Assembly: GCA_032111745.1 (NCBI GenBank)
Contig: JAULUH010000156.1
Location: 1-63,664 of the forward strand
DNA: 63,664 bases
DNA from: Anaerolineae bacterium
GTDB lineage: Bacteria > Chloroflexota > Anaerolineae > JAAEKA01
Reading direction: 5' to 3'
Positions 7,595 through 32,175 of this stretch are shown piece after piece. The notes under the pieces are model-generated. The model did no database searches. It saw only the letters and a list, made by a program, of their open reading frames with translations, and was not told where the DNA came from. The position numbers and the translations under genes were made by a program. How positions within the stretch are numbered: position 1 is the stretch's first letter; each line of letters begins with the position of its first letter.

Positions 7595-8028
7595 AGTGAC
7601 ATCAGCAACGAGCCAGTGATCTGGCAAGGGCCAGAGTACGCTGACTCCTGGTATCGGAGATGTCCTATCTACAGGGCATCGCCAGTATTGTGTGAATGAT
7701 CAGTTCATCGTGGCTGCACTGCGTCGATGCTGAAGGAACTGAGCATGGCACGGCCGAGACGAGGGCATACTGCAAGCCCTCTTCCCCTCGAATGCTCCGC
7801 AGGTATCTGGTCCGCAGGGGATGCCTCTTGCAGAGGGCATAGCATCGCGGCGAACGCCTACCTCCCTTCCACCGTTGGTCATGGAGCCGGGAGCTGGCCA
7901 TTGCCGGCAATGGTGGCCCGAGATTGTCGCAAGACCCGACTGATGCGCACCACGCAAGCTGATCCCCCTGGCCGGTCAGGCCATTTCATGAGAACAGCGT
8001 TATAGGGTCATTGACCAGAGGAGGAGTC
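7595..8028 (+). promoter_or_regulatory. Long (~430 nt) 5' leader of the giant CDS; possible cis-regulatory RNA or uORF
   Basis: No convincing CDS lies between the promoter and the GGAGGAG-ATG at 8029. Several local hairpins occur (e.g. gagggc-N9-gccctc). No riboswitch class was recognised by eye. Confidence 0.3.
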
Positions 8029-13614: not shown

Positions 13615-13654
13615 CAGGGAAACGTGGGTGTGGACAGAAAGGGGAGATATCAAA

Positions 13655-13682
13655 GGGCGGGTGCTTTGCGAAGCACCCGCCC
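13655..13682. terminator. Bidirectional hairpin terminator between convergent genes
   Basis: Perfect 12-bp stem gggcgggtgctt / aagcacccgccc with loop tgcg, 41 nt after the giant CDS stop. A second GC hairpin with a 17-nt tandem repeat (ggcctccgtgcccgcc x2, 13705..13737) sits next to the BY-kinase stop. Confidence 0.7.
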
Positions 13683-13763
13683 TTACCATCACGTCGTAGG
13701 GGCGGGCCTCCGTGCCCGCCCGGCCTCCGTGCCCGCCTAGCCCTGGCATAAACGCCGCTGGGA

Positions 13764-15422
13764 CTATTTGGCGCCCGTGCCAGCCCCTGGTAATAGCCGG
13801 CGCCAATCCTGCGGCTTGCTCCGGCGGCCCTGGCTGCCGCCAGTGCCACCATCACCACCGCCGCCCTCTTCATCCTGGCTGTAGTACTGGTGGTAGTAGT
13901 AGTAGTAGTATGAGCCACTACCGCGCGGCTGTATGCGGTTCAGCGACACGCCCAGGATATTCGCACCAACCTTCTCCAGCGCCTCCTTGGCGTTCTGAGC
14001 TATCTGGCGCCGGGTGATCCCGGCCTCGACCACCAACACCACACCGTCGGTCTGCCGGGCCAGGATGGCCGCATCGGTCACGGCCAGCGTCGGCGGGCTG
14101 TCCAGCAGAACTACATCGGCGCGATCCGCCAGCTGATGCAGCAGGTCGCGGAAGCGCTCCGAGCCCAGCATCTCCGCCGGGTTAGGGGGTAGTGGCCCCG
14201 TGGTAAGCACCTGCAGGTTTTCGTAGCGCGTATCCTGCAACAGGCTGTCCAGGTCGGGCTGGACTTGCAGCAAGGCGTTGGACAGGCCGATGCTGTTGGG
14301 CAGCTGGAACAGCCGGTGCAGGGTCGGCCGCCGCAGGTCAGTGTCCATCAGGATCACGCGCTGGCCCTGCTGGGCCATCACCAACCCCAGGTTGGCCAGG
14401 GTCGTGCTCTTGCCCTCACTGGGGCTGGAGCTGGTGATCATCAAGGTGCGAGGTGGATTGTCCAGCGCCGAGAACTGGATGTTGGTGCGCAAGATGCGGT
14501 AGGCTTCGGCAGTGGGAGACTTGGGCTGCAGCCCGGCCACGAGCTTCTGCTCCGGCGACTCGCCCTCGATCTGCGTCACGGCACCCAGGGTGGTTAGATC
14601 CAGCGAGTTCTTAATATCGTCGGGATTCTTCAACGTGTCGTCGAGGTAGTCCAACAGAAAGGCCGCCCCCAGGGCCAGCAGCATGCCGATCGCCGCGGCC
14701 AGCACGATGGTCAGGGCTTTGTTGGGTCCAATAGGCTCCGTGGGCAGCTCGGCCGGCGCGACGACGTTGACGGCATTGATGCCGCCGCCTACGAAGCCCA
14801 GGAGCTGGGCATAGTTGGCCTGATAGGTGGTCAGTTTCTGTTCCAGGGCTTGGATCTGGGTCTGGGTGTCGGCGATCTGGCGCGCGCTGAACATATTGCC
14901 CAGCTGCTGCCTGAGCTCGTCAACTCGAACGGTGGTTTCGTCGATGTTCCGTTCCAGGTCCTGCAGCTGCTTGGTCACGAAATCACGCCGATCCTGGGTT
15001 ACCTTGGCAACGCCGCTGGGGCTCTGCTCGATCAACTGGTTCGCCAGCTCGTTGGCTACGGCCTGCGCGCGCTGGGGGCTGGTGTCCGCAACGCTAATCT
15101 CGATCAACTGCGTGTTTGGCACCAGAGACACCGAATAGTTGGGCAACCATTTCAAGCCCAAGGCCTGCATCGTCGCCAGGCGCACCGTATCGCGACGAGC
15201 CAGCTCGGCGTAGGTCTGGGCCAACTGCTGGCCCAGCCACAGGTCGTTGGCTACCGGGTTGGGGTTCTCGATGGTGCTGCCGATCATCAGCGTCGTCTTG
15301 GCGCTGTAGACCGATGGTTGCTGGCGCGTAGCGATAAAACTGGCTGCCATCGCCACCAGGGTCGACAACAGGATAAGCCACAGCCATTTGCGAATGGTTT
15401 GAAAGTACTGGCGAAGTTCCAT
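13764..15422 (-). CDS. Polysaccharide co-polymerase (Wzz domain) fused to BY tyrosine autokinase
   Basis: N-terminal Wzz-like TM plus coiled-coil region. Walker A SSSPSEGKSTTLANLG, DTDLRRP, Walker B VVLLDSPP. C-terminal Tyr cluster GSGSYYYYYYHQYYSQ. Confidence 0.9.
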   Translation of the reverse strand: MELRQYFQTIRKWLWLILLSTLVAMAASFIATRQQPSVYSAKTTLMIGSTIENPNPVANDLWLGQQLAQTYAELARRDTVRLATMQALGLKWLPNYSVSLVPNTQLIEISVADTSPQRAQAVANELANQLIEQSPSGVAKVTQDRRDFVTKQLQDLERNIDETTVRVDELRQQLGNMFSARQIADTQTQIQALEQKLTTYQANYAQLLGFVGGGINAVNVVAPAELPTEPIGPNKALTIVLAAAIGMLLALGAAFLLDYLDDTLKNPDDIKNSLDLTTLGAVTQIEGESPEQKLVAGLQPKSPTAEAYRILRTNIQFSALDNPPRTLMITSSSPSEGKSTTLANLGLVMAQQGQRVILMDTDLRRPTLHRLFQLPNSIGLSNALLQVQPDLDSLLQDTRYENLQVLTTGPLPPNPAEMLGSERFRDLLHQLADRADVVLLDSPPTLAVTDAAILARQTDGVVLVVEAGITRRQIAQNAKEALEKVGANILGVSLNRIQPRGSGSYYYYYYHQYYSQDEEGGGGDGGTGGSQGRRSKPQDWRRLLPGAGTGAK

Positions 15423-15439
15423 AGGCCTTTACGGGTTCC

Positions 15440-17870: not shown

Positions 17871-18731
17871 TTACCCTTCCATCTGCCCCCTTGCTGCGGA
17901 CAAGGCCTCCAACAGAAATGGCCACAGGTCCGTTGTAGGACGATAACGCAGGCGGTACGCGGGTACCTGCGCCGCCAGGCGTTCCACCACGGCCAGCCAG
18001 GCCAGGGCGCTGGATACCCGCTCTACGGCCACCTTTTCGGTCGCCAGCAGGCCCAGCGCGGCCTGGCCGGGATCCAGCGGCTCCAGCGCAAACTCTGGCC
18101 CATGTTCCAGTAGCAGCAAGGCCTGCAGAGGCAGGCGACGGTTACGGCGTTGCACCATTTCCGGCGGCGTACTGGCGCCCCAAAATGGCGTGCTCGCCAG
18201 CATGGGCTGCGTCCCGGCCAGTGACACCACCAGGGTCTCGTCCGTCAACACCTCCGCATATCCCGCCGCCAGCCGCGATAGCGTGGTCTTGCCTGCACCC
18301 GATGGCCCGCAGCAGGCCAGGCCCATGCCGTCCAACACGATCGCTGCGCCGTGCAACAGCAGCCCCTCATGTTCCCGGGGTAGGGCCTGCATGCAGATGA
18401 AGCCCAGCACCCGATCCAGGGCCGATGGCGCCCGTTCCGGCGACGGCGTGCTGACCTCAGCCCGTCGCTCGACCAGGTCGATCCATCCTTCGTGTGCGGA
18501 GACTCCGAAGCGAGTCACGTCGCCCTCGTGCACAACCCAGGGCGCGTCCTGGTCGGACCGGCTGGCAGCGTGGATCACGGCCACATCCCAGGGAGGCATC
18601 TCGCCCGCCGGCGCGCCTACCGGCAGACCAAATTCAGCATAGCGCGCGACCAGGGCCGCCAGCCAGGTGCGCTCCGGCACGTGCACCACGCAGCGCACGC
18701 CGGCGATGTCAACGGTGAAGTCGTGGAACAT
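17871..18731 (-). CDS. HPr kinase/phosphorylase-like (HprK-related) P-loop protein
   Basis: 286 aa. The C-terminal half has LLLHGAAIVLDGMGLACCGPSGAGKTTLSRL, matching the HprK C-terminal P-loop. No HPr or PTS context is present. Confidence 0.75.
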   Translation of the reverse strand: MFHDFTVDIAGVRCVVHVPERTWLAALVARYAEFGLPVGAPAGEMPPWDVAVIHAASRSDQDAPWVVHEGDVTRFGVSAHEGWIDLVERRAEVSTPSPERAPSALDRVLGFICMQALPREHEGLLLHGAAIVLDGMGLACCGPSGAGKTTLSRLAAGYAEVLTDETLVVSLAGTQPMLASTPFWGASTPPEMVQRRNRRLPLQALLLLEHGPEFALEPLDPGQAALGLLATEKVAVERVSSALAWLAVVERLAAQVPAYRLRYRPTTDLWPFLLEALSAARGQMEG

Positions 18732-18773
18732 AGGACTAGATGGCCAGTTCGCAGGGCGCGCTTCAGAGCGCCG

Positions 18774-19961
18774 CTACGAGCTAGGAGGCTTGGAGGACTG
18801 CGCCTGGCTGGTGAGCAGCTCCCGGAGGCCCAGCACCCAGCGGTAGGGATAGGCCAGGGGTACCAGCCAGTCGCTGTCAAGGGCGTAGCGCTGCCGCATA
18901 TAGTTGCGTGATGGAAACAGATGGGCCAGGGCAAAGGGCACTCGGGCCCGCCAGCCTGGTAGGCCGGCCAGGTCGGCCCAGAAGCGCTGGGCCACCGGTC
19001 GCTCCGGCGCAGTGAGCCAGCTCACCACGCGCTGCTCCACCGGCGATACCGGCAGGGCCAGCGCCTCGGCCAGCTGCGCCTCAGGAATGGGTACCGCCCA
19101 CTCCCCGGCCAGCTCTGCCAACACGCGCTGCACGGGCGTCACCAGGTGAAATGCGCCGGCCTTCTCAAGCAACATATCCCAATCGATCAGGGCGCCGGAC
19201 AGTGCCACCAGGGTGGCGATGTCATAGAACCAGCGCAGCCCCACCCCTTTGTGATGCAGCACCAGGTGCGCCGACAGATAGAGCAGATTAGCCTCCGGGC
19301 TCAGCACCTGCGCAGGCCGCCCGGCCAAAGTGAGTTCTCGGGCCGTCTGCCAGAACCAGTCCGTGGCCAGCCTCTCCTGGTAGTAGGGTGCATCTAGTAG
19401 ATACCAGTGGATTTCCAGGGTCACCGGCACCACGCCCGGCCGCCGCAGGGTGATCTCGTTCTCGTACGCCAGGGTCAGCCCGGGGTGCGGCTCATCGTGA
19501 ACCCGCCCGTAGCCCAGGGCCTCCAGCTGCGCCACTGCGGCCAGAACGTCGTCAGCGCGAAACAACAGATCGACGTCGGTCATCGGGCGCAGGGCAGCGT
19601 TGCCGTATAATTCCTCGCCCAGAGCTGCGCCCTTGAGCACGATCACAGGTAGGCCTGCGGCGGCCAGCGAGTCCAGCGCCTCGGCCAGCCCCATGCCGAC
19701 ATAGGCATTCTGGATCGCGGTCTGCTGGTAGATCCACAGCAGTGCTTCCTCCACCGGGGCTGGCACCAGGTCACGACCGCGCACTGCGTCGTAAAGCAAT
19801 GGCCCCACGCCCACCGGCCCGACATGTTCCAGAAGGCCAGGCCAGTCCAACTCGGGTCTGGTGGCCTCGCTGCGCGCAGCGTCCAGCGCCGCCGGTTCCC
19901 AACGGCTACGCAGGCATTGCACGAGGAAATCCCAGGTTGGTTGATCCAATTGAGCAGGCAT
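18774..19961 (-). CDS. Uncharacterised nucleotidyltransferase family protein (NTP_transf_5-like)
   Basis: VIVLKGAALGEELYGNAALRPMTDVDLLF and TLEIHWYLLD motifs typical of this family. The start is 9 nt after the C25 gene stop. Confidence 0.7.
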   Translation of the reverse strand: MPAQLDQPTWDFLVQCLRSRWEPAALDAARSEATRPELDWPGLLEHVGPVGVGPLLYDAVRGRDLVPAPVEEALLWIYQQTAIQNAYVGMGLAEALDSLAAAGLPVIVLKGAALGEELYGNAALRPMTDVDLLFRADDVLAAVAQLEALGYGRVHDEPHPGLTLAYENEITLRRPGVVPVTLEIHWYLLDAPYYQERLATDWFWQTARELTLAGRPAQVLSPEANLLYLSAHLVLHHKGVGLRWFYDIATLVALSGALIDWDMLLEKAGAFHLVTPVQRVLAELAGEWAVPIPEAQLAEALALPVSPVEQRVVSWLTAPERPVAQRFWADLAGLPGWRARVPFALAHLFPSRNYMRQRYALDSDWLVPLAYPYRWVLGLRELLTSQAQSSKPPSS

Positions 19962-19970
19962 GCATTGCTC

Positions 19971-22898
19971 TCAGTGCGCCGCTGCCGGCACCAGAGCCCA
20001 ACCTTTCGTCACGTGGGGCAGGTACATCCTGCCTCCAGACGGCACGCGCAACCGGAGCGCAGGATCACCCAAGAAGACCGTGGTGTCCACGACGTCGCGT
20101 GAGCTACTGCCACCGGCGATGAAATAGGCCTTCGCCGCGTTAACCGCGAGCCCTGCCCGGTCTGTTCGATCCTGGAAGATGGCCCTCGACAATCCCTGGT
20201 CCAGCCCCAGCAGGGAACCGCCTACGTGAAGCCCGGTAGGCGACAGGTCAGCCACCACACCCCGGCCTGGAGTGAGCAGCAGCACTTCGCCCAGGGAGCG
20301 CTCGTCAAAATTGTACGTGGCGATGCTCTGAATGCCGACGAAGTAGCCGGACCAACAGGTGTAGTGGGCGCTGAAAGGTAGGCCCGCCCCAGGGGCGAGG
20401 GTAGCAGGATCGAGAGTGTTGAATACGTCGACGGTTCCCCAGCGGAAGCGCGAGGCGTGGCCGTACCACTGCAGGTAGAGGGCACCTTCGGCAAACGCGG
20501 TCTTGATGGCAGCACGTACCTCAGGGCCCGAATCGTGGGCACTATCCATGTTGAAGTAGATCGCCCGGCTCTGTGTGCCGGGGGGCAGGGCCAGGCGCAC
20601 CGTGTCGCTGAGCCGGTGGAAGTTGCCGGCAGGATCTGCGTTGTTGTCGGCCACGAACACTGCCCGGCGCTGCCAGCTACCCGCTGGCGCAGTCTTTTCG
20701 TAGGCGATGATCTTGTCGACCACGGCCGTGACGTCTGCGGGGGTCTTGGCCGGGATGCGGCCTAGCGCCATGTCGGGCATGTAGTCATTTGGGCCGTCCA
20801 CGCTGACATAGCGGTTGTCTGCAGCGGTCTCACCGATGAACGGATCGATGTGCAGCAGATAGGGAGGGAGAAGGTTGGGCAGGCTGGGAGCCACCGCACC
20901 CTTGAAGTCGATGTGGCCATCTCCCACCAGTAACACGTACTGCGGCGGCGCTTGGCCCGCATTCCAGTTGCGGTAGGCGTAGGAAAGGAAGGAGCGGATC
21001 GCCTCCGGATCCACACGGCCGAAGCTGAACTCGTCGTAGATGTCCTGCACGTCCACCTTGGCCACCCGCAGCCCTTCGGCGGCCCGATGGTTCAGTAAGG
21101 GCTGGACAGCATCCCAGAGGGAGAAGTGGACGATGGCGATGTAATCGGCCCGGTTGCCCGGGGCGCGCCAACTCGAGGGCTGGTCCACTTCCACCGCCCT
21201 GGGCGCCAGCAGGCCAGCATCGCTGCTAAGCACGTAGCGAGGCGCGGCATCCGCAGCCTGCCAGGCATCCCAGAAGCGTATCGTGGTGCTGCCGCCCACG
21301 GCCTCGGCCTGCACGGTGCCCAGCTGCACCGGGCGCAGGGGATTGCGCACGTCCAACACCCGCACGGCACCGGTGGTGAACCCGGTGACAGACACCTGCG
21401 CGCGCTGGCCAGTGACGGCCAGGCCGTCGATCCCGATTTGGTCGTTCTCGGCGTCAGCGCGCGCTGGATATGTGATCTCCACCCAGTCAGGCGAGACCCA
21501 ATAGCTGGAAACAGTGGGCAGCTGGGCTAGCGCGGCCTCCAGGGTAATACGGCTGGGGGAGGTGTCGAGCCAGGCCGCGGGCACCGCGGCCTGGGCTACG
21601 AACGGGGTGCTGCCATCCCAGGTGAACACTCCGGCTGGCTGGCCGTTCACCTGCAGGGCCACGGACTGGTCGGGCGCCGCGGCCTGGGACTGGCCGCCGT
21701 GCAGGCGAGCACGGATGGTGGCGGAATTGGACTTAGAACTTAACGGCGAATGGGTAGAAGGCGGAACGGATAGCGCTTGCGGGGCCAGGTCATCGAGGAC
21801 AAAGTCGTAGGTCACACGGGCGGTGGGGGACTGGGTGTTGACAGAGAGCGGGTTGTCGAAGAAATGGTCGACGTCCCTGGGAAGGGGGTAGGTACTGTAG
21901 TAGATCCGGTCGAACTCGACCCGCGCGGTTTGGAGGATGGTGATGACGAGAGGCTCGGAACCGGTGGGGGGCACGTCGCGGCGTTGCACACGGCCGCCGG
22001 CCGCGCCGCCATAGGCCAGACGGTAGACGTTGCGCGTCGTATAACGGCCCTCGTAGGGCTCGCCGTAGAAGACCACCAGGTCACCAGCATCGAAGCGGCC
22101 ATCGTCGCTGCCGGTCACCAGGATATCCACTGGCTGGCCCAGATAGGTCATGGAGAAAGTGGCCGGGTTCAACGAAGCCACGGGCACGCCCGCGGCCTGC
22201 AGCTCGCCATAGGTCAGGCGATACAGGCCGCCGCGCCCGGTGTAGACACGCACTGCACCCTGCTCCGCGGCGGGTTGCTGTGCAACCGCGGTAACGGGCT
22301 CGAGTGCCTCCGGCTCCGGGGCCACAGGCGTAAACGACAGGGTAATCCCTAGGTCGGGATGATAACGCAGCTGGCCAGATACAGGGTTAACCTGGAACGG
22401 GAACACGGTTACCGGCAATAGTCGCCGGCCGCGCTGGACCAGTTCGGGGCCGGTCACGACCGGGCTGGCGGGGTAAAAGGCATCGGAGGTGTAGATGACG
22501 GGGTCAGGCCGGTCCACCAAGGGTACCGATCCTGGCAGGTCGGGTTGGGTCGTCCAGCTCTCTGGGTAGTTAAGGTCCAGCTCCGGCACGGGTACTGCCG
22601 GTAGCGTGCCGGGAGCCGCCAGCACTTGCGGGCCGGTCGACTCATAGACCAGGTGCCACTGGCCCTCGGGCGGCAGCTCCACCAGCGTCGACCACACAGG
22701 CAACGCCGGCGCGCCGGGCGTGTCGTGCGCGGCGTAGCCCTCCACGCGCAGGCCATCACCGTCAAGGTGGTAGGTGGGAGTCTGCACGCGCAGGGTGATC
22801 GGCTCAGGCTGTTCAGGCCTCGCCGCAGCGGGCGTCACAGAGGCCAAAAGCACGCCAACGACCAGTAAGAGGGCTAAGGCTTTCGTACGAATCGACAA
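19971..22898 (-). CDS. Secreted peptidase C25 (gingipain-like) family protein
   Basis: TTG start with GAGGA SD and signal peptide ALALLLVVGVLLASVTPAAA. C25 core: YVLLVGDGHIDF...DNRYVSVDGPNDYMPDMALGRIPA. Putative catalytic His in LQWYGHASRF and Cys in SAHYTCWSGYF. Confidence 0.8.
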   Translation of the reverse strand: MSIRTKALALLLVVGVLLASVTPAAARPEQPEPITLRVQTPTYHLDGDGLRVEGYAAHDTPGAPALPVWSTLVELPPEGQWHLVYESTGPQVLAAPGTLPAVPVPELDLNYPESWTTQPDLPGSVPLVDRPDPVIYTSDAFYPASPVVTGPELVQRGRRLLPVTVFPFQVNPVSGQLRYHPDLGITLSFTPVAPEPEALEPVTAVAQQPAAEQGAVRVYTGRGGLYRLTYGELQAAGVPVASLNPATFSMTYLGQPVDILVTGSDDGRFDAGDLVVFYGEPYEGRYTTRNVYRLAYGGAAGGRVQRRDVPPTGSEPLVITILQTARVEFDRIYYSTYPLPRDVDHFFDNPLSVNTQSPTARVTYDFVLDDLAPQALSVPPSTHSPLSSKSNSATIRARLHGGQSQAAAPDQSVALQVNGQPAGVFTWDGSTPFVAQAAVPAAWLDTSPSRITLEAALAQLPTVSSYWVSPDWVEITYPARADAENDQIGIDGLAVTGQRAQVSVTGFTTGAVRVLDVRNPLRPVQLGTVQAEAVGGSTTIRFWDAWQAADAAPRYVLSSDAGLLAPRAVEVDQPSSWRAPGNRADYIAIVHFSLWDAVQPLLNHRAAEGLRVAKVDVQDIYDEFSFGRVDPEAIRSFLSYAYRNWNAGQAPPQYVLLVGDGHIDFKGAVAPSLPNLLPPYLLHIDPFIGETAADNRYVSVDGPNDYMPDMALGRIPAKTPADVTAVVDKIIAYEKTAPAGSWQRRAVFVADNNADPAGNFHRLSDTVRLALPPGTQSRAIYFNMDSAHDSGPEVRAAIKTAFAEGALYLQWYGHASRFRWGTVDVFNTLDPATLAPGAGLPFSAHYTCWSGYFVGIQSIATYNFDERSLGEVLLLTPGRGVVADLSPTGLHVGGSLLGLDQGLSRAIFQDRTDRAGLAVNAAKAYFIAGGSSSRDVVDTTVFLGDPALRLRVPSGGRMYLPHVTKGWALVPAAAH

Positions 22899-22993
22899 AG
22901 TAGTCTATCCTCTGATCAGGATGCATGGGCAGGTTTGTCGCGCGCACTGAAGTGCGCTACGAACCTATTATACTCCTGGACCGGGCGACAAAG

Positions 22994-23028
22994 GAGACGC
23001 CGGGCCCCGGTGAAGGGCCCGGCGTCTC
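22994..23028 (-). terminator. Intrinsic terminator after CDS 23054..24622
   Basis: Perfect 14-bp stem gagacgccgggccc / gggcccggcgtctc with a 7-nt loop. It is followed on the minus strand by CTTTGT, 26 nt after the stop. Confidence 0.7.
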
Positions 23029-23053
23029 TGCCTTGCGTGGGTATCGAGGTTGG

Positions 23054-24622
23054 CTAGCGCTTGCGGCGCTGCGCCACGAACGCTGCGGCCATGGCCAGGC
23101 CGGCCGTGACCGGGACAGCCACCAGCGGCAGGCTCGCCGCGGCAGCACTACCGGCGTTCGCGCTCTGGCTGGAGAACTCGCTCAGGGTGACCGCGGTGGG
23201 ATCCAGGCAGGCGGCGCCGGCCGGCCCGCTGAGAGCAGTGGCTCCGCCGAGGTCGACGCTCTCGACCCAGTAGTAGTATGTATTGCCGGTAACGGCCGTG
23301 CTGTCCACGAATTGGTAGGCAGCACCAGTGGTGCTACCGGGGACCTTGGACGGGATCAACGCGGCGTTGACCTGCTCCCGGGCACCGTCAACCGCAGTGC
23401 TGCGGTACACGTTGAAGCCCTGGTTATTTACCTCGCTCACCGTCTCCCAGGAGACCGTGGCGACGCCGGCGGAGCAGGTGGCTCCCAGGCTGGACATTTC
23501 CAGCGCAGTCGGACCTGCGGTATTGGTGAAAATGCACGTGGTGATCTCGCCCAAGGCCACATCCACCGTGACCTTCCGGTTGGTCAGGTCAACGTTGCCT
23601 GTGGTCTGCCCGTTCCTGGTGCACACCAGGCTGGACAGGGTCCAGCCCTCTTCGCCAAGATCGAACACCTCCTCCACCGTGTAGCTGCCGGCTTCGGCGA
23701 TGATCAGCTTTTTGGGATCCTGCGTATCGGTCAGAGAAAAGGTCTGGGTGTAGTCATTCGGGCCTGTGACGCCGAAGTCGAACACGTGGTTGGCACCCGG
23801 TGGATTGGTCACCTTGTCGACGATGATTTGCCCCGGCGCAATAATCTTGCCCCACAGGCAGGCCACGTTGTCGGTGCGTTCCTCGGTGATGAACTCCGTC
23901 TTCGTGCTGTCTTCGCCGGGGAACACCTGCTCAAGGCAGTTGCCGTTGGGCGGATCGGGGACGAAGCCCAGAATCTGCAGGGTGTATTCGGTACCTTCGC
24001 ATACGAAGGTAGTGCTGGGCACGCTGTCCACGGTCACCCTGTCCGGACATATCGTGTCTCCCTCATATTTGCACGGTTCCTGGTTAAAAGTCTCCTCGAG
24101 GTTGAATCGGTAGACCAACTCCGGTGTCACCGTGGAGTTGTCATTGCAGGTCACTGGTACCTTCACGGTCAGGTCCACGTAGTTGAGCGGATTCGGGAAG
24201 TTCAGCAGCGGGTTATTGTAATGAGTGAACTGGCCGAGGTAGAAGGGGGTCTGGGGAGCCAGATCGCCAACATCGTTATTGCCGTCGAAGCCGAAGCCGC
24301 TGCGGTCGCCAATGGGGCCGCAGTTCTCTCCAACCTCGCCATAGCGCACCTGGTTTTCGTCAGTGTCAGGCGGTGTCTGTATGGCTGGATCAGATTCGCT
24401 GCTTGCGGTCGGGAAGTCTCCCGGCCCAGTGGCCCAGGCATCACAGGTAGCTCCCTCTTCGTGAATTCCTGGCTTGGCATCTGGGATACCCCACACGCCG
24501 TCGACATTGCCCACGGCCAGAGCCGAGGCCACGGCGACGAGCAGCAACGTGATCACTGTAGCCAGCGTCACGGCTCTCGCTCCAACCGGTAGATGTCGCG
24601 ATATTCGCTTGCGAAAGGACAT
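23054..24622 (-). CDS. Secreted multidomain surface protein with C-terminal anchor-like tail
   Basis: Start set at AAGGAGG-ATG MSFRKRISRH (track start 24712 unlikely) with signal peptide VTLATVITLLLVAVASALA. A prealbumin/SpaA-like module (IIVDKVTNPPG...CIFTNT) is followed by an FN3-like 'WETVSEVNNQGFNVYRS...YYYWVESVD' module. C-terminus: AVTLSEFSS...LPLVAVPVTAGLAMAAAFVAQRRKR. Confidence 0.8.
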   Translation of the reverse strand: MSFRKRISRHLPVGARAVTLATVITLLLVAVASALAVGNVDGVWGIPDAKPGIHEEGATCDAWATGPGDFPTASSESDPAIQTPPDTDENQVRYGEVGENCGPIGDRSGFGFDGNNDVGDLAPQTPFYLGQFTHYNNPLLNFPNPLNYVDLTVKVPVTCNDNSTVTPELVYRFNLEETFNQEPCKYEGDTICPDRVTVDSVPSTTFVCEGTEYTLQILGFVPDPPNGNCLEQVFPGEDSTKTEFITEERTDNVACLWGKIIAPGQIIVDKVTNPPGANHVFDFGVTGPNDYTQTFSLTDTQDPKKLIIAEAGSYTVEEVFDLGEEGWTLSSLVCTRNGQTTGNVDLTNRKVTVDVALGEITTCIFTNTAGPTALEMSSLGATCSAGVATVSWETVSEVNNQGFNVYRSTAVDGAREQVNAALIPSKVPGSTTGAAYQFVDSTAVTGNTYYYWVESVDLGGATALSGPAGAACLDPTAVTLSEFSSQSANAGSAAAASLPLVAVPVTAGLAMAAAFVAQRRKR

Positions 24623-25095
24623 GGATTCCTCCTTGCCACTGGGGCAACTTGTGCGGAGATGTCTCACACACTCAATGAACTGCAGCACGGAATGTGCGCT
24701 GATCCGACTCAAGAGATGGGCTGGCGTCCATCACGGGCCTACCGATGGAGAACCCTTGGCTTCATGTGCTGCTAGCCAACCTTCCGGCCACGTGATCGAG
24801 GACCGGGCTGGGCGCCCGGGACAGGACCTTGGCTCCATCCGATCCAAGGGCTGAAGTCGAAGGAAGCCGGGAGGGATGCCCTGAACACAGCAGCATCCGC
24901 ATCATGGCCGTGACGTGATGCGACCGCGGCCATGATGCGAGCTTCTTCAGGGGTGACAACGGATCAAGCCCGGTTCCCACCAGGCAGGCCCTAACGGCCA
25001 GAGAGCACGGTTCTGGGTCGGCACAGGGCCAGCTACCATCCATGGGACAGCAGGCCGTGAAGCGCCAGATGGATCCGTTGATCGTCAGGAGTGCT

Positions 25096-25290
25096 CTAGC
25101 AAACGCCGGTATCGCCGGCAGATGTGGCCAGAGGGCCCAGGAAGTTCTGCGGTCCCTCGATCGACTGCGGAGGGAAGCTCTCCTGGGCGCGAGCTTCCAG
25201 CGTTCGCTCGAACACGATGGATGGCTTCTCCCACGAGCGGCGGCTCGGGGATGCGATGGTCGTCGACGTCAGTCTGGACGGAGTCTGCAT
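25096..25290 (-). CDS. Candidate precursor peptide (64 aa) of the adjacent radical SAM/PqqD cassette
   Basis: AGGAGG SD 5 nt before ATG, 43 nt downstream of the rSAM stop on the same strand. Third-position GC is high, as in neighbouring genes. Sequence: MQTPSRLTSTTIASPSRRSWEKPSIVFERTLEARAQESFPPQSIEGPQNFLGPLATSAGDTGVC. Confidence 0.55.
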   Translation of the reverse strand: MQTPSRLTSTTIASPSRRSWEKPSIVFERTLEARAQESFPPQSIEGPQNFLGPLATSAGDTGVC

Positions 25291-25333
25291 GAAATCCTCC
25301 TATGAGTGGTCAAACTGATAGCTTGGTCGCGGT

Positions 25334-26560
25334 CTATCCGTTCATCGGCAGTGCAAACCCGTCGATTCCGTCCAGTAGAGGGATCGGCTGGGCGAACGGC
25401 GTAGAGTTGGCTGCCGGCGGGTTGATGCGCAGGCGAGCCTGCAGAGGTGTCTCCGGGATCGCTTCTCCCGGATGCAGCTGGGCAAAGCGAGCCTGGGCCT
25501 GCTGGCAGGCCAGTGAATGGCCGCCGTACAGGTCACCGTGCTCTTTCCAGGCCAACCCGGAGCATCGTCCTTCGCAATAGGCGTTGATCGAGCACACCTG
25601 GCACTCGGGCAGGCTCTTGAAGGTGTGCCGCGCCTGTAGCTCTTGCAGGATAGGTGCGTTGGCCCAGATATCGCCGAAGCGTTGCTGGCGCAAATTGCCA
25701 GCCGGGATGCGCAATTCCAGGCACGGATAGACATCACCGTACGGGCTGATCAGGCACGACGATAGGCCCACCGAACAGGTGCGACTCTCAGGCTGCCGCA
25801 CGAGAGGCCTGAACTGGCCGCCGTCGGCGAGCATCGCTGCGGTAATCTGCAGGCGATCCAGCTGATGCTGGCCTGCCTTGTCGGTGCCATCGTCGGCCGT
25901 GGAAATCTTGAATACCTGCTCATAACGCACACCCAACTCCTGCGCCAACTTGATCATCTGCTGGCGCTCAGCGATGTTCAGATCCATCAGCAGGGTGTTG
26001 AGCTTCACCGGCACCCGCCGCTCCTGCAGGAGCTGGACTCCCCGCAGGACACGGCGCAGGGTGTCCTGGCTACGAGCGATGGCATCGAAAGTAGCCGCCG
26101 AGGCGCCCAGAAGGCTGATATCCACCCGAGACGGTGCCAGGGAAGCGATGCGATCGGCCCGCTCCGGTGTGATCAGCGTGCCGTTAGTCTTGAGATTGAC
26201 GTCAAAGCCCAGGGCCCGCGCTCGTTCGGCGATGCTGAAGAAATCGCGGCGGGCCAGAATCTCGCCACCGGTCAGGGTGAGCCGCAGGGTGCCGGCCTCC
26301 GCCAACTGGTCCAGCACGTGGAGGCACTCCTCAGTGTCCAGCTCCGGTTGAGCCAGAGGCACATTATAGCACATGATGCAGTCCAGGTTGCAGACGTGAG
26401 TCAGCTCCCACAGGACTGTAAACGGCACGTGCTCGCGCTTCAACCGAGACAGCAGCGCCTCGTACGGATCCGCCGCGCTATCGGGCACAGCGCAGCCATC
26501 GAAGCTGCGGTCCACGGGATCGGCGACCTGGGGTACGGCCAACGGGATCATCGTCGTCAT
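25334..26560 (-). CDS. Radical SAM enzyme with C-terminal SPASM-type auxiliary-cluster domain (peptide-modifying type)
   Basis: CNLDCIMC (CxxxCxxC) near residue 60. C-terminal Cys-rich region: CSVGLSSCLISPYGDVYPC ... CQVCSINAYCEGRC. Start taken at ATG 26560; the track TTG at 26566 is also possible. Confidence 0.9.
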   Translation of the reverse strand: MTTMIPLAVPQVADPVDRSFDGCAVPDSAADPYEALLSRLKREHVPFTVLWELTHVCNLDCIMCYNVPLAQPELDTEECLHVLDQLAEAGTLRLTLTGGEILARRDFFSIAERARALGFDVNLKTNGTLITPERADRIASLAPSRVDISLLGASAATFDAIARSQDTLRRVLRGVQLLQERRVPVKLNTLLMDLNIAERQQMIKLAQELGVRYEQVFKISTADDGTDKAGQHQLDRLQITAAMLADGGQFRPLVRQPESRTCSVGLSSCLISPYGDVYPCLELRIPAGNLRQQRFGDIWANAPILQELQARHTFKSLPECQVCSINAYCEGRCSGLAWKEHGDLYGGHSLACQQAQARFAQLHPGEAIPETPLQARLRINPPAANSTPFAQPIPLLDGIDGFALPMNG

Positions 26561-26575
26561 GTCCAACTGCTCAAC

Positions 26576-26848
26576 TCATTCTACCCAATCCACCAGGCCC
26601 CTGGTCTCCAGGTCAGAGAGAAACTCCGCCACCTGCTGTCGGGCCTCGGACAGCGACACCTCAAAGTCCTGGGTCAGGAGGGCGGCAATCTCATCCATGG
26701 TGCGGCTGCCGTCGGCCAGTTCCCAGATGCGCGACCCGGTGGGATTCAACATGCGCACCGTGTTCTCGGCCGGGCTGATGATAACGGCGTCCTGGCCGAA
26801 GACTCGCGAGGCCGTGCGTGGGCTGTGTAGGGGCTTGCGCTGATCCAC
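26576..26848 (-). CDS. PqqD-family protein (RiPP recognition element-type peptide chaperone)
   Basis: 90 aa with AGGAG SD and a GTG start. VIISPAENTVRMLNPTGSRIWELADGSRTMDEIAALLTQDFEVSLSEARQQVAEFLSDLETRGLV is a textbook PqqD/RRE pattern. Confidence 0.85.
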   Translation of the reverse strand: MDQRKPLHSPRTASRVFGQDAVIISPAENTVRMLNPTGSRIWELADGSRTMDEIAALLTQDFEVSLSEARQQVAEFLSDLETRGLVDWVE

Positions 26849-26876
26849 AACACTCTCCTAGGCGAATGTCCTAGAC

Positions 26877-26905
26877 ATTCTAAAGCAAGTCTAAACGGCT
26901 GTCAA
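26877..26905 (-). promoter_or_regulatory. Sigma70-type promoter TTGACA-17-TAGAAT for the PqqD-rSAM-peptide unit
   Basis: Minus strand reads TTGACAgccgtttagacttgcttTAGAAT in the 92-nt gap after the sugar-transferase stop, ~22 nt upstream of the PqqD start. Confidence 0.6.
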
Positions 26906-26940
26906 CAGGCAAATTGTCCAAAACACCAGCGGTCTTACAC

Positions 26941-28443
26941 CTATTGACCCTTCAGTTGTAGCATCACAGAGATAGTGCGCAAGATGATGCGCAGGTCCAG
27001 CAGCATGTTGGCGTTCTTGACGTAGTACAGGTCATATTCCAGCTTGATACGCGAGTCGTCTACGGTGTTCCCGTAGCGATACTGCACCTGGGCCCAGCCG
27101 GTGATCCCTGGCCGCACCGCATGCCGGGCCCGGTAGAGGGGGACGGTCTTGGCCAGGCTCTCCACGAACTCGGGCCGCTCCGGCCGCGGGCCGATGAGGC
27201 TCATCTCACCGCGCAGCACGTTGATGAACTGGGGCAACTCGTCAATACGGGTCTTGCGCATGACACGCCCGGCCGGCGTGATGCGATCGTCGCCCGATCT
27301 AGCCCACACGGCGCCGGTGTGCTTCTCGGCATCCGGCACCATGGAACGAAACTTGATACAGTGGAAGGGCCGGCCACCTGCGCCCACGCGCCACTGGCGG
27401 TAGAACAGCGGCCCAGGAGAGAACATCCGGTTGGAGATAGCCACGAATGGGATCACCAACGCCAGCACAGCCATGCCGGCCAGGGAGGCGGCAAGGTCCA
27501 CCACCCGTTTGGCGACCAGGTACAATCGGTGGCCTGCGTCCTCATCCATGGGCAATGCGTCGCTCAAGTTGCGCCCCACGTGTTGCACGGGCACCCGCGC
27601 CAGCAGGCGCTCGTAGATGGTCGACATGGTGGTCACACGCAGGCCCAGCTCCCGGCAGCGCAGCAGTTCGTCGAACAGCCCGTCGACGATGTCATGCCGG
27701 TGGGTGATGGCCAGGATGATCTCATCCACATCCAGCGCCTGGGCCATGGGCACCAGCACACTGTGGCCTCCTAGCACCGGAATGCCCCGGACATCCTGAC
27801 CGTTCAGCTGCACCGAGTCGTCGACAAAGCCCATGATCTGATAGCCCGTGCCTCGATAGGGGTTGGCATCGTCCGGAGCCGTCCTAAACATATCCACCAA
27901 CGTGCGGCCCGCCAGGCCTGCGCCCACCACCAGGGCGCGCTGCGTGAAGCGGGGCTGCGCAAACAGGTTGGCATAGACAACGCGCCAGGCGGCGATGCTC
28001 ACCAGCGCCAGCCCGCCAAAGATGAAGATGATGCCCCGAGAGATCAGAGGAGGGGTCAGCTGCGGGATGAAGGTATAGACCAGCACCGTAGTTGCCACTG
28101 CAGCCGCCACGTTGCGAATGCTGTTCATGGTGCTGGCGGCGCGCGCCAGATCATACACGTCGAAGAACAGAGCTACCAGCCCCCATACCACCGTCAGGGT
28201 AATGTACCATTTGAAGGGGTCCAACAACTGGGCCAGCGTATCGGGCGTATCGTTGCCCAGGGCCCAGGCCACCATCAGCGCAGTGTTGAGCAAAAGAACA
28301 TCTATTATGAACAACAACACCTTGCGCTCTGAATTGCGCAGGCGCAAACTGGCCCCAGCCCCGCGTTTGGGTGACGTCAGAACGTAATCGGCCTTGCTCC
28401 GGTTGGATAAGCCTTCGTTGAAGCCTCTGGAGTCGAGACTCAT
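26941..28443 (-). CDS. Exopolysaccharide priming polyprenyl-phosphate sugar phosphotransferase (Bac_transf family, WbaP/EpsB-like)
   Basis: N-terminal TM bundle, a central nucleotide-binding-like domain (ALVVGAGLAGR) and the canonical C-terminus: GPLFYRQWRVGAGGRPFHCIKFRSM...DDRITPAGRVMRKTRIDELPQFINVLRGEMSLIGPRPERPEF. Confidence 0.9.
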   Translation of the reverse strand: MSLDSRGFNEGLSNRSKADYVLTSPKRGAGASLRLRNSERKVLLFIIDVLLLNTALMVAWALGNDTPDTLAQLLDPFKWYITLTVVWGLVALFFDVYDLARAASTMNSIRNVAAAVATTVLVYTFIPQLTPPLISRGIIFIFGGLALVSIAAWRVVYANLFAQPRFTQRALVVGAGLAGRTLVDMFRTAPDDANPYRGTGYQIMGFVDDSVQLNGQDVRGIPVLGGHSVLVPMAQALDVDEIILAITHRHDIVDGLFDELLRCRELGLRVTTMSTIYERLLARVPVQHVGRNLSDALPMDEDAGHRLYLVAKRVVDLAASLAGMAVLALVIPFVAISNRMFSPGPLFYRQWRVGAGGRPFHCIKFRSMVPDAEKHTGAVWARSGDDRITPAGRVMRKTRIDELPQFINVLRGEMSLIGPRPERPEFVESLAKTVPLYRARHAVRPGITGWAQVQYRYGNTVDDSRIKLEYDLYYVKNANMLLDLRIILRTISVMLQLKGQ

Positions 28444-28519
28444 GGCTACACCTTTCTGCCACGTCTACCGTGAAAAAAGCGCCAAATTCTTTGAGTCTGT
28501 TGTTAGTGGCCGGCAACGG

Positions 28520-29665
28520 TCAACCGGCGCCAACCGTTGGCCAGCCAGAGCTTACTGTCTTGTACATAGTGTGCAGGATGTCTTGCTCGCGGCGGCGCTG
28601 CTGATCGTACCACACCCGTCCGGCCTGGCCCATCGCGGCCAGCCGATCTGGATCCGAAAGCGCCTCGCTCAGGCATCCGGCCAGAGCCTGGGCATCACCA
28701 GGGGGCACGATCCAGCCTGTATGGCCCGGTTCCACGTATTCAGGCAACGCGCCCACGCGCGTTACGATTACGGGCTTCTTGAAGAAGTACGCAGCAGCTA
28801 CCAGGGCCGACTGGGTGGCATCTACATAGGGCAATACTACCAAGCCACAACGGCGGAACAGATCTAGGGCTTCTTGATCGTCGATTCGCCGGTTGAACAC
28901 CTCAATTTGAGGCGGGATCCGGTCTACCCACTCTTCTGGAAGGGATCCTGGCCCGGCCATTGTCAAGAATGGAAGCATGCGATGCTGGCGTGCCAAGGCC
29001 TCCCCAGCCTCAAACAGATACGCCACCCCTTTGTAGCGCTCGAGGCGACCGAAAAACAAGGCCCAAGGTTCGTGGACGATCTCCAGGGCTGAAGACCCTT
29101 GGGCTAGTTCTAGTGTATCATGACTCAGAAACAAATGCAATAGTGGTGTGGCCCAGATTCGCTGCGCTGGCAGACCTTTAACAAGTAAGCGTTGCCGGTA
29201 GACCTCGCCGTGCACCAGGATGTGGCTCGACCACCTCAGCACCGCCCGATTCCACAGGCGGATGAGCTCGCCAAATCGCACCCCTACGTGCGGGTCCAGG
29301 TCATGTAGCGTATGGATTACCGGGACTCCTTGCCGGCGCAACTCCCGGACCAGGGCTGGGTTCCACAGATGCACACCCGTAAAATGCACCACGGCCGGCT
29401 GGCCGGCGCTGCGCGCCAGGTCCAGTACAGTGCTAAGGACCTGACGTCCAGCCGGCACATCCAGCCCCTCGGCGGTGAAGCCGGTACTCTGCATCGTGAC
29501 CGGCGTGTGAATCGCCACATCAGGAGAGTAGCGATCCCGTACCAGTGTGGAGGTGGACACCAGGTGCACATCATAGCGACCATCGCCGGCCAGGCGATTG
29601 GCCAGGTCGGCCGTATACTGATGCATGCCGAAGGTAGGCGACAGCAGGACGTAGATTATGCGCAC
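28520..29665 (-). CDS. Glycosyltransferase family 4 (GT-B fold)
   Basis: Start placed at GTG giving MRIIYVLLSPTFGMHQY, a typical GT4 N-terminus; the track TTG at 29698 is possible. C-terminal donor-binding region: GLVVLPYVDATQSALVAAAYFFKKPVIVTRVGALPEYVEPGHTGWIV. Confidence 0.85.
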   Translation of the reverse strand: MRIIYVLLSPTFGMHQYTADLANRLAGDGRYDVHLVSTSTLVRDRYSPDVAIHTPVTMQSTGFTAEGLDVPAGRQVLSTVLDLARSAGQPAVVHFTGVHLWNPALVRELRRQGVPVIHTLHDLDPHVGVRFGELIRLWNRAVLRWSSHILVHGEVYRQRLLVKGLPAQRIWATPLLHLFLSHDTLELAQGSSALEIVHEPWALFFGRLERYKGVAYLFEAGEALARQHRMLPFLTMAGPGSLPEEWVDRIPPQIEVFNRRIDDQEALDLFRRCGLVVLPYVDATQSALVAAAYFFKKPVIVTRVGALPEYVEPGHTGWIVPPGDAQALAGCLSEALSDPDRLAAMGQAGRVWYDQQRRREQDILHTMYKTVSSGWPTVGAG

Positions 29666-31381: not shown

Positions 31382-31657
31382 TCATGGCGGCGCAGGCGTG
31401 CTCATCAACCGCGCATAGACCTGGTCTATCTGGCGGTACACCACCTGCCAGGCATACGTTTCCTCCACCCAGGCCTGGCCATTGGCCCGCAGCGCTGCGT
31501 TTAGCCCGGGATCCCGCAACACGCGCACTGTAGCCGCCGCAAAGGCCGCGGCATCGCCGGCAATCCGGATGTTCTCCCCGTCCCGCACCTCGATGCCCTC
31601 AGCACCGATAGGCGTGGCAACGGTAGGCAGGCCCCATATCGTTCCGGCATTGTTCAT
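31382..31657 (-). pseudogene. 3' remnant of a GT4 glycosyltransferase (last ~83 codons only)
   Basis: WGLPTVATPIGAEGIEVRDGENIRIAGDAAAFAAATVRVLRDPGLNAALRANGQAWVEETYAWQVVYRQIDQVYARLM aligns to the C-terminus of CDS 32867..34111 (most residues identical by eye). Homology stops abruptly at ~31632, where the HEPN gene ends. Confidence 0.7.
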
Positions 31658-32175
31658 GGCCTGAACTCCTGGCTATCTGCCAGTTGGTCTGCCAGAGTAT
31701 AGAGCCATGCTACAAAGCGCTGGACGTCAGTTTCCACCTGGCTCCAAACCACCGGGTAGCGGCTCACCAAGCGCTCAACGCGTTCCGCATCCAATTCAAA
31801 CCCGTAGATGTTACGCACAACGTGGCGGAAAGCCAGGTACTCGCGCAGGTTCTGGACGGTAGCGGGAGCAAGCAAGGCAGGCCGACCCTGCCAAGCTGTT
31901 TCCATTCGCTCTAACAGACGCCGGTGCCAATCGAAACCCGTGGGAGCTCCTCCATTTAACTCTGATGCGACTATTTGAAAGATGCGCTCGCAACCCGTAT
32001 AGAAGTTGTGGAGTTTGAGGGCCAGGTTCTCGTAGAACAGAGCGGAGTGTCCAGGATCGCGGACTATCTCCTCCTGAACGGCAGCTACCTCGCCAACCAA
32101 CCTCCGGAGATGTCCCAAATCTGCGTTGATGTCAGCAGCCAGACCCCGCAATGCTTCCGGTGAAACTTGTTGCAT
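31654..32175 (-). CDS. HEPN-domain protein (HepT-like putative RNase toxin)
   Basis: 173 aa, all-helical, with LREYLAFRHVVRNIYGFELD (R-x4-H-type HEPN motif region). The start is coupled to the stop of the upstream nucleotidyltransferase (TGAGATG). Confidence 0.7.
   Translation of the reverse strand: MQQVSPEALRGLAADINADLGHLRRLVGEVAAVQEEIVRDPGHSALFYENLALKLHNFYTGCERIFQIVASELNGGAPTGFDWHRRLLERMETAWQGRPALLAPATVQNLREYLAFRHVVRNIYGFELDAERVERLVSRYPVVWSQVETDVQRFVAWLYTLADQLADSQEFRP

Follow-up and report, generated by a model that had tools for sequence, protein, structure and literature searches.

We analysed a stretch of 63,664 nt from contig JAULUH010000156.1 of an Anaerolineae bacterium (referred to here as the window), and focused on a minus-strand cassette at positions 25096-26905 that encodes a PqqD-family protein, a radical S-adenosylmethionine (SAM) enzyme with a SPASM domain, and a peptide of 64 residues. 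This cassette is real and probably encodes a previously uncharacterised peptide-modification system that is spread through the Chloroflexota. We read it as the core of a multi-enzyme pathway, conserved in this phylum, for a RiPP (a ribosomally synthesised peptide with post-translational modifications), and assign this reading, together with the mechanism set out below, a probability of roughly 60%. An earlier note on the same DNA had described a promoter, a PqqD-type open reading frame (ORF), a radical SAM enzyme of about 408 residues carrying the motif CNLDCIMC, and an ORF of 64 codons, and this description was correct in every detail (Table 1). The PqqD ORF is separated from the ATG of the radical SAM gene by 15 nt, and the radical SAM gene from the peptide ORF by 43 nt.

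One genome per GTDB species was scanned, and 274 relatives of the radical SAM enzyme were confirmed, from which 78 loci were kept (designated by L numbers). In 47 of these loci, from Anaerolineae, Caldilineae, Thermoflexales, Ardenticatenaceae and Ca. Amarolinea, the enzyme is 53-74% identical to that of the window, and these loci are considered orthologous. The remaining 31 loci are distant, with 32-41% identity. Neighbouring genes were identified by tblastn with the window proteins and by clustering of all ORFs, and were counted in the 20 loci that extend for 8 kb or more on both sides (full-flank loci).

The small ORF recurs together with the radical SAM gene. A tblastn search detected a homologue of the peptide in 34 of the 47 orthologous loci, usually 46-360 nt past the stop codon of the radical SAM gene, and a motif search added the peptide gene in 10 more. 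The three or four loci in which it is missing lie on contigs that end just past the radical SAM gene, and once the motif search was included the gene was present in all 20 full-flank loci. Thus, whereas the earlier note had allowed that related radical SAM/PqqD pairs in other genomes might never have a homologous small ORF, this ORF is syntenic in essentially all orthologous loci. The synteny-guided tblastn and motif searches were needed because a word-indexed homologue search with the peptide found only two close relatives. A profile search of 1.84 billion representative proteins recovered about 28 clusters of peptides of 60-70 residues. Long TPR proteins also matched the profile and were rejected as false positives, the match being caused by a 'YERALEV.TRESYPQ' repeat.

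Alignment of 31 peptides revealed a common architecture, in which a variable N-terminus is followed by a leader (WExPxIxxERxLExxAQ), a Pro/Gly-rich linker of variable length and a core (LGPLxxSGGxGxC), after which there are 0-1 and rarely up to 9 residues. M1, W20, P23, E28, R29 and L31 are invariant, and A35, G52, P53, L54, S57 and C64 are each at least 90% conserved. In the window peptide, the leader reads W20-x2-P23-x-I25-x2-E28-R29-x-L31 and the core L51-G-P-L-x-x-S57-x-G-x-x-G-x-C64. The peptide encoded in the closest relative, L081, is 86% identical to that of the window. Codons 16-44 of the two genes show nine synonymous and no non-synonymous differences, while six non-synonymous differences are found in codons 2-15. 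Since divergence in codons 16-44 is synonymous only, the peptide is under purifying selection. Taken together, synteny and sequence conservation indicate that the small ORF is a real, conserved gene.

Neither the window peptide nor any of eight diverse peptides of the family matched an NCBIfam or Pfam model, and nothing corresponding to it appeared in a literature search, in keeping with the earlier view that the peptide belongs to no named class. Basic residues precede W20, and a Tat or Sec signal was considered for the peptide and rejected, there being no hydrophobic h-region. The window holds one copy of the peptide gene. At L005, two precursor copies were observed (at 9273 and 11287), one upstream of the PqqD gene and the other downstream of the radical SAM gene, with identical leader and core and different N-termini. 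The peptide of L034 ends exactly at the conserved Ser, and those of L025 and L026 end in Cys-Ser.

The PqqD-family protein reached no specific NCBIfam cut-off (the best match, lasso_PqqD_Bac, scored 37.8 bits against 80), and its top NCBIfam matches were to lasso, GeoRSP, ScmD and pyrroloquinoline quinone (PQQ) PqqD models, at 34-38 bits. Its gene lies directly upstream of the radical SAM gene in 44 of the 47 orthologous loci, and in every full-flank locus. The radical SAM enzyme matched the Pfam Radical_SAM and SPASM profiles with 85.5 and 42.4 bits, respectively, and has no built-in RiPP recognition element (RRE). When aligned with 18 homologues, C57-x3-C61-x2-C64 was invariant, as was the SPASM pattern C262-x12-G-x4-C280, C320-x2-C323-x5-C329-x3-C333, C352.

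No NCBIfam equivalog cut-off was reached by the radical SAM enzyme. The AhbD and NirJ models gave 155 and 143 bits against cut-offs of 500, in alignments that cover only the N-terminal half of the protein (residues 51-228). The enzyme is therefore not placed in a known non-peptide family, as the earlier note had considered it might be. StsB (residues 50-355) and MftC (residues 47-337) align over nearly the whole enzyme, with scores far below their cut-offs. The best match to a PDB sequence was PqqE (6c8v, residues 45-352), and the folds closest to an AlphaFold model of the enzyme (pLDDT 74.6) were those of SkfB, PqqE and SuiB, all of which are RiPP maturases. More than 770 clusters of homologues, with 60-92% identity, were found, all from Chloroflexota where the source is named, and some of these are labelled 'AdoMet-dependent heme synthase' in Joint Genome Institute (JGI) records. 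Because no curated model names the peptide, the radical SAM enzyme or the PqqD protein, the genes carry the label 'hypothetical' or, erroneously, 'heme synthase' or 'AlbA'.

The features that characterise RRE-dependent radical SAM/SPASM systems are present, namely the CX3CX2C motif, a SPASM domain with seven Cys residues, an adjacent PqqD and a co-conserved gene for a peptide with leader and core. Domains and synteny thus support what the earlier note had proposed, a unit of RRE (PqqD), radical SAM/SPASM enzyme and precursor peptide, in which the PqqD/radical SAM pair would bind and modify the peptide. The promoter of the cassette was the best of four sites in a 5.8-kb scan, in which shuffled sequence gave 1.4 +/- 1.1 sites. 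Both of its hexamers, the AGGAG ribosome-binding site and the GTG start codon are identical in L081, and the rest of the promoter-bearing intergenic DNA is only about 83% identical between the window and L081.

The cassette is not, however, the self-contained unit that it had been taken for. A secreted Peptidase_C25 is encoded in all 20 full-flank loci, and a ScmC-like kinase and a PF14907 nucleotidyltransferase-fold enzyme recur in them. In the window, the genes for the latter two lie at 17871-19961, 5-7 kb downstream of the cassette. All of these partners are on the same strand and separated by short gaps, with the PF14907 gene 9 nt after the C25 gene and the ScmC-like gene 42 nt after the PF14907 gene. 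The commonest gene order among the loci is PF14907, ScmC-like, PqqD, radical SAM, peptide, C25. Usually the C25 gene is the next one after the peptide gene, and the two remain direct neighbours, with the peptide gene upstream, even where they are apart from the radical SAM gene (L004, L020 and L034). In addition, a C25 gene, an ORF of 151 residues and a ScmC gene occur together at L084 (6641-10825), where no radical SAM gene lies within 10 kb, which shows that components of the system need not be encoded with the radical SAM cassette.

No further gene family was found in more than 14 of the 47 orthologous loci by ORF clustering, and for this reason no conserved exporter could be recognised. 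The earlier statement that the cassette comes without exporter, immunity gene or leader peptidase thus stands for the first two, as neither was found among the recurrent neighbours, but does not hold for a peptidase, since C25 accompanies the cassette. A link to the cell envelope and to exopolysaccharide (EPS), also suggested earlier, was strengthened by the survey. EPS genes accompany 12 of the 20 full-flank loci, and in several cases (L008, L023 and L044) the block is placed between the genes for the priming transferase and Wzc.

The C25 protein matches Pfam Peptidase_C25 over the full domain and carries an N-terminal signal peptide, both in the window and in its orthologues. Among NCBIfam models it matched PorU (NF033707) best, with 198 bits where 420 are required. 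The His/Cys dyad is presumed to lie in two motifs, LLVGDGH and C(W)SGYF, that most orthologues conserve; only these two catalytic motifs were read from the alignment because partial or paralogous ORFs contaminated it.

Searches of PDB sequences with the ScmC-like protein, alone or as a profile, gave only generic P-loop matches, and scans of each family member against NCBIfam, together with a structural model and Foldseek, were therefore needed to establish its identity. In an alignment of 28 sequences, H127, G142-x-S144-G-x-G147-K148-T and D164 are invariant and constitute the HPr-kinase signature. Matches to HprK_rel_B were obtained for 24 of these 28 members, to HprK_rel_A for 21 and to ScmC for 18. 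The window protein gave no match in a Pfam profile scan, and is assigned to PF27840 ('ScmC') in precomputed Pfam. Its AlphaFold model (pLDDT 94.8) matched phosphoenolpyruvate carboxykinase (PEPCK; E = 3e-8) and HPr kinase (1knx; E = 7e-6) in Foldseek. By its sequence signatures and predicted fold, the protein is an HPr-kinase/PEPCK P-loop superfamily kinase that belongs to Pfam 'ScmC'.

Table 1. Features of the cassette and its surroundings in the window, with the occurrence of partner genes among full-flank (of 20) or orthologous (of 47) loci.
Feature	Position	Strand	Evidence or remark	Occurrence
Sigma-70-type promoter, TTGACA-17-TAGAAT	26877..26905	-	In 92-nt gap after priming sugar transferase gene; 11/12 match to consensus	
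PqqD-family RRE, 90 aa, AGGAG, GTG start	26576..26848	-	Pfam PqqD, 65.8 bits (cut-off 23.4)	
Radical SAM/SPASM enzyme, 408 aa	25334..26560	-	Radical_SAM and SPASM profiles; CX3CX2C and full 7-Cys SPASM	
Precursor peptide, 64 aa, AGGAGG then ATG	25096..25290	-	Synteny, alignment, purifying selection	
RNA hairpin, 12-bp stem, no U-tract	24899..24938	-	RNA fold; about 160 nt after peptide stop	
Choice-of-anchor-K-type surface protein, signal peptide, YYYW...PTAVTL-TM-RRKR tail (TM, transmembrane helix)	23054..24622	-	NF038131, 59.8 vs cut-off 30	12/20
Peptidase_C25, 975 aa, PorU-like, signal peptide, His662/Cys848	19971..22898	-	Pfam C25, 248.8 bits	20/20
PF14907 (NTP_transf_5) nucleotidyltransferase-fold enzyme, DVD at residues 129-131	18774..19961	-	164 bits	10/20
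ScmC-family kinase, HPr-kinase/PEPCK P-loop fold, 286 aa	17871..18731	-	Alignment, profiles, model	12/20
Membrane protein, Cys-rich N-terminus, TolB-like beta-propeller, 798 aa	15440..17836	-		10/47
Wzc-type chain-length determinant/tyrosine autokinase	13764..15422	-	TIGR01007, 198.5 bits; EPS context	14/47
EPS priming polyprenyl glycosylphosphotransferase, directly upstream	26941..28443	-	TIGR03025, 367.9 vs 295.55	13/47
S24/S26-like small peptidase				6/20
Any EPS gene (Wzc, priming transferase, glycosyltransferase family 4 [GT4]) within 8-10 kb				12/20

The kinase and the PF14907 enzyme are also kept in the distant loci, which come from Nitrospira, Rokubacteria, Methylomirabilota, Acidimicrobiia, Elusimicrobiota, Omnitrophica and other Chloroflexota. 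Among these 31 loci, 29 have the ScmC-like kinase, 21 the PF14907 enzyme and 22 an S24-like peptidase, often fused to PF14907. C25, on the other hand, is limited to Chloroflexota loci, and the relatives in other phyla are without it. The remote leaders follow the pattern aromatic-x-x-P-x-[ILV], then L-E/N and A, as in KKPYxxPxLFRVELNQEQAIL... and KPYxKPxIVYLAPLEAxA.... Their cores contain two or three Cys residues, Ser being the final residue of 15 of the 19 peptides. In Nitrospira-type loci, three-Cys cores are accompanied by three radical SAM/SPASM genes. A strict rule of one radical SAM enzyme per Cys was considered and rejected, as it holds only loosely: the numbers are three and three in the Nitrospira type, one enzyme and two Cys in the remote Chloroflexi type, and one and one in the window.

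One such locus, L057 of a Nitrospiraceae member (9651-16046), contains genes for PqqD, two adjacent radical SAM/SPASM enzymes, two tandem peptides (one ending in Ser) and a ScmC-like kinase, followed by a third radical SAM/SPASM enzyme and a PF14907-S24 fusion (14367-16046). It is flanked by genes for a methyltransferase and an extracytoplasmic function (ECF) sigma factor, and not by EPS genes.

The S24/S26-like protein is about 160 residues long and carries a GxSMxPTL...AHRLVRR motif, resembling LexA or signal peptidase. It was found at L005 (16488-17072), L017 (6077-6553), L034 (7526-8026) and others, in total in 13 of the 47 orthologous loci, usually beside the ScmC-like kinase, and no homologue is present in the window. 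Standing alone, it gave no Pfam match, and the L057 fusion matched Peptidase_S24 weakly (E = 1e-3). This protein is a candidate cytoplasmic leader peptidase.

In composition, the window system is closest to SynChlorMet (TIGR04248-TIGR04251: ScmC, ScmD, ScmE and ScmF), with which it shares a ScmC-family kinase, a PqqD chaperone, a radical SAM/SPASM enzyme and short peptides. Judged by the models of that system, it is nevertheless not a member, as the window proteins scored 30.9 bits against a cut-off of 125 for ScmC, 35 against 100 for ScmD, 90.1 against 400 for ScmE and 79.8 against 400 for ScmF. Furthermore, SynChlorMet has two radical SAM/SPASM paralogues, whereas the window and the orthologous loci have one. 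The peptides belong to another family, and the window system adds PF14907, an invariable secreted C25 and an EPS locus. It is the Nitrospira-type relatives, with two or three radical SAM enzymes, that resemble the SynChlorMet cassette most. SynChlorMet itself was defined computationally, and we know of no experimental characterisation of it.

The combination of an HPr-kinase homologue, an 'uncharacterised nucleotidyltransferase' and a PqqD-type RRE is probably shared with phospho-glycosylated lasso peptide systems (paeninodin, pseudomycoidin and Bsf). In these, HprK-type kinases attach a phosphate to the C-terminal Ser of the lasso precursor, and one or two hexoses are then added to this phosphate by PsmN, an 'uncharacterised nucleoside triphosphate (NTP) transferase' (PMC6993621, PMC8498205). 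The Ser that BsfK phosphorylates on co-expression with the RRE BsfB1 is an internal one, and lasso leaders carry a YxxPxL motif with the same spacing, aromatic-x-x-P-x-aliphatic, as is seen in the window leader (PMC10368454). The Ser-ending peptides of the remote relatives resemble PadeA and PsmA (PMC6993621, PMC8498205), and the PF14907-S24 fusion at L057 parallels the nucleotidyltransferase-B2 peptidase fusions that exist in lasso clusters (PMC8498205). Unlike lasso systems, however, neither a cyclase (Asn-synthetase-like C) nor a B2 peptidase was present among the scanned window genes or the recurrent neighbours. A radical SAM/SPASM enzyme replaces the class-defining enzyme, and in window-type peptides the conserved Ser is internal, with Cys or Cys-x at the C-terminus.

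In terms of curated cut-offs and diagnostic features, neither of which it shares with them, the window system is not a member of the sactipeptide, mycofactocin, PQQ, lasso or AhbD/NirJ families, and a literature search found no description of this gene combination. The best reading is a new RiPP family, in which an RRE-dependent radical SAM/SPASM pair is combined with what is probably a lasso-type phospho-glycosylation module and with an invariable C25 partner in an EPS context.

In the mechanism that we propose for this pathway, PqqD would bind the leader via W20-x-x-P23-x-I25 and present the C-terminal core to the radical SAM/SPASM enzyme. The enzyme would then make a Cys64-dependent radical modification, most likely one thioether ring from the Cys sulfur to a carbon in LGPLxxSGGxGxC. 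The kinase would phosphorylate the conserved Ser57, and the PF14907 enzyme would decorate the phosphate, for example with a hexose, in the manner of PsmK and PsmN in pseudomycoidin. The peptide would be exported, and the secreted C25 would remove the leader or otherwise use the peptide outside the cytoplasm; in relatives, the S24-like peptidase may remove the leader. The product is probably crosslinked through Cys and phosphorylated or phospho-glycosylated on Ser. Its site of action is probably the cell surface or the EPS matrix, in a role other than that of a bacteriocin; we favour this because the core is conserved across orders and because the genes are found repeatedly between those for EPS priming and chain length.

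Several points weigh against this mechanism. The kinase and PF14907 genes are absent within 8 kb in eight of the 20 full-flank loci, and may be accessory, or encoded elsewhere as at L084. The thioether is a guess, since there is only one Cys in the window-type core, and epimerisation, a C-C crosslink or oxidation of Cys to formylglycine, as by anaerobic sulfatase-maturating enzymes (anSME), are alternatives. Window-type peptides end in Cys or Cys-x, and the phosphosite therefore differs from the C-terminal Ser known from lasso precursors. PsmN is only presumably a PF14907 member, to judge from its annotation as an 'uncharacterised NTP transferase'. Finally, a signal peptide is present on C25 but no secretion signal on the peptide, no conserved exporter was found, and C25 could instead serve the neighbouring surface proteins.

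These surface proteins share a C-terminal tail, which we observed as a recurrent module of the pattern LIPSQ..G..GG.Y...TYYYW(V/L)E(D/S)VD..G..T.HGPVS..PTAVTL...A, followed by a transmembrane helix and RRR(K). The module is present in the window at 23054-23400, and also at L004, L014 (two proteins), L016, L017, L080 (two proteins) and L081. It is carried by surface proteins encoded beside C25 genes, and at L017 by the C25 protein itself. No Pfam or NCBIfam model covers it, and it is a candidate sorting signal.

In the window, the gene for the tailed surface protein lies between the peptide and C25 genes, whereas in L081 the C25 gene directly follows the peptide gene. At 24788..24762 (-), the window retains a block in which the L081 C25 gene's ribosome-binding site and start region are conserved, and only eight codons and a stop follow it. 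This relic of a C25 start points to a probable insertion of the surface-protein gene between the other two in the lineage of the window. The separation of C25 by the inserted gene explains why the cassette had looked self-contained at first reading. An RNA hairpin, with stem arms GCAUCAUGGCCG and CGGCCAUGAUGC and a 16-nt loop, lies after the peptide gene. L081 and L083 have the same two stem arms with a different loop and different flanks, and a search of Rfam gave no family for the hairpin and nothing relevant across 22000-29000. It may act as a stabiliser or attenuator, or terminate some of the transcripts, and the balance between peptide mRNA and downstream mRNA could depend on it.

Four other explanations of the cassette were weighed. 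A radical SAM/SPASM enzyme, an RRE and a Cys-containing core are shared with the sactipeptide, ranthipeptide and Skf systems (AlbA, StsB, SkfB and CteB) and make up the grammar of a sactipeptide; StsB is the best-scoring peptide-maturase model and SkfB the best fold match. The peptide might then be a secreted antimicrobial or signalling compound of this kind, whose position in a glycan locus is incidental. We consider this unlikely. The enzyme misses the StsB and AlbA models (131.5 bits against 625 and 56.7 against 850, respectively), the RRE is a separate PqqD protein and not an N-terminal domain, and the core has a single Cys. Moreover, this core is conserved across the phylum, over orders where the radical SAM enzyme is only 53-74% identical, while bacteriocin cores are usually far more variable. 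The peptide gene is present as a single copy in the window, and no immunity gene and no dedicated exporter, be it an ATP-binding cassette (ABC) or a peptidase-containing ATP-binding cassette (PCAT) transporter, was found among the recurrent neighbours. The recurrent position in EPS operons also argues against a chance location.

A different role for C25 would make it a PorU-like transpeptidase that sorts the surface proteins with the YYYW...PTAVTL-TM-RRR tail, while the modified peptide, perhaps phospho-glycosylated, would be its acceptor or would link the proteins to the polysaccharide. PorU attaches cargo of the type IX secretion system (T9SS) to anionic lipopolysaccharide (A-LPS), and the window C25 shares with it the best model match, secretion and the His/Cys dyad. 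The constant position of the peptide gene upstream of C25, the clustering of tailed proteins around C25 with the tail on C25 itself at L017, the embedding of the module in EPS operons and the adjacency of ScmC and C25 at L084, where the radical SAM gene is missing, all fit such a role. Against it, the argument is one of analogy, to a model of which the score falls short by the figures given above; no conserved exporter for the peptide was found, and cleavage of the tail is hypothetical. The relatives outside the Chloroflexota have no C25 at all. No T9SS genes were seen in the window, and Chloroflexota are not known to have a T9SS. We thus hold it to be quite improbable that C25 is such a sortase, and equally so that the peptide is, in place of a free natural product, a ribosomally made envelope adaptor that, once crosslinked through Cys and phospho-glycosylated on Ser, serves C25 as acceptor or linker in the coupling of tailed surface proteins to exopolysaccharide, or serves as a polysaccharide primer.

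A stand-alone PqqD-type chaperone, a radical SAM/SPASM enzyme and a short peptide are also found together in the PQQ and mycofactocin pathways (PqqA/D/E and MftA/B/C). Among PDB sequences the enzyme matches PqqE best, MftC aligns over its full length, the high conservation fits a housekeeping role, and mycofactocin is also glycosylated. It is nonetheless very unlikely that the C-terminus of the peptide is excised into a small redox or prosthetic molecule for enzymes of the glycan locus. The enzyme scored 106.3 bits against 381 for PqqE and 124.6 against 265 for MftC, the core has no Glu/Tyr pair (E-x3-Y in PqqA), and the peptide ends in ...GxC(x) and not in the Val-Tyr of MftA. The associated peptidase is extracytoplasmic, and neither a conserved partner oxidoreductase nor a homologue of PqqB/C/F or MftD/E/F was found among the recurrent neighbours of window-type loci. 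Lastly, AhbD and NirJ2 gave the top NCBIfam E-values and several homologues bear heme-synthase names in JGI records, but that the enzyme is an AhbD/NirJ-type heme or cofactor enzyme, and the small ORF irrelevant, is scarcely credible given the low and partial scores reported above, the obligate adjacent PqqD, the conserved peptide and the absence of heme-pathway genes among the neighbours scanned.

Other genes of the window bear less directly on the cassette. The 798-residue membrane protein, encoded between the ScmC-like gene and Wzc, has an N-terminus that reads CPYVGL...HRCF...CLTAEHVNCPRF, a single transmembrane segment and a C-terminal propeller, with linkers that are long and rich in Pro, Thr and Ala; it is an occasional partner, and its membership of the system is uncertain. 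Within the glycan locus, a gene at 31654-32175 (-) encodes a HepT-like toxin domain (Pfam HepT-like_2, 110 bits) and is probably part of a HepT/MNT toxin-antitoxin pair. An ORF of 1867 residues at 8011-13614 (+) gave only weak beta-propeller and DUF5060 matches, and may encode a large surface or glycan-acting protein that borders the locus.

The wider family, which includes members in Nitrospira, Rokubacteria and Acidimicrobiia, would tie the phosphorylation and glycosylation module of lasso peptides to radical SAM chemistry across several phyla. The mass shifts predicted for its products are -2 Da for a crosslink, +80 Da for phosphate and +162 Da for hexose. Activated sludge, anaerobic digesters and sediments are dominated by filamentous Chloroflexota, among them Ca. 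Amarolinea, Anaerolineae and Caldilineae, and how they build their surface and matrix is little understood. The adaptor or primer role, were it true, would make a RiPP a structural part of protein sorting or of EPS assembly in these bacteria. More generally, a phylum-wide maturation system that is associated with a secreted cysteine peptidase and with EPS operons points to a modified peptide that would serve in envelope and biofilm biology, and not in antibiosis.

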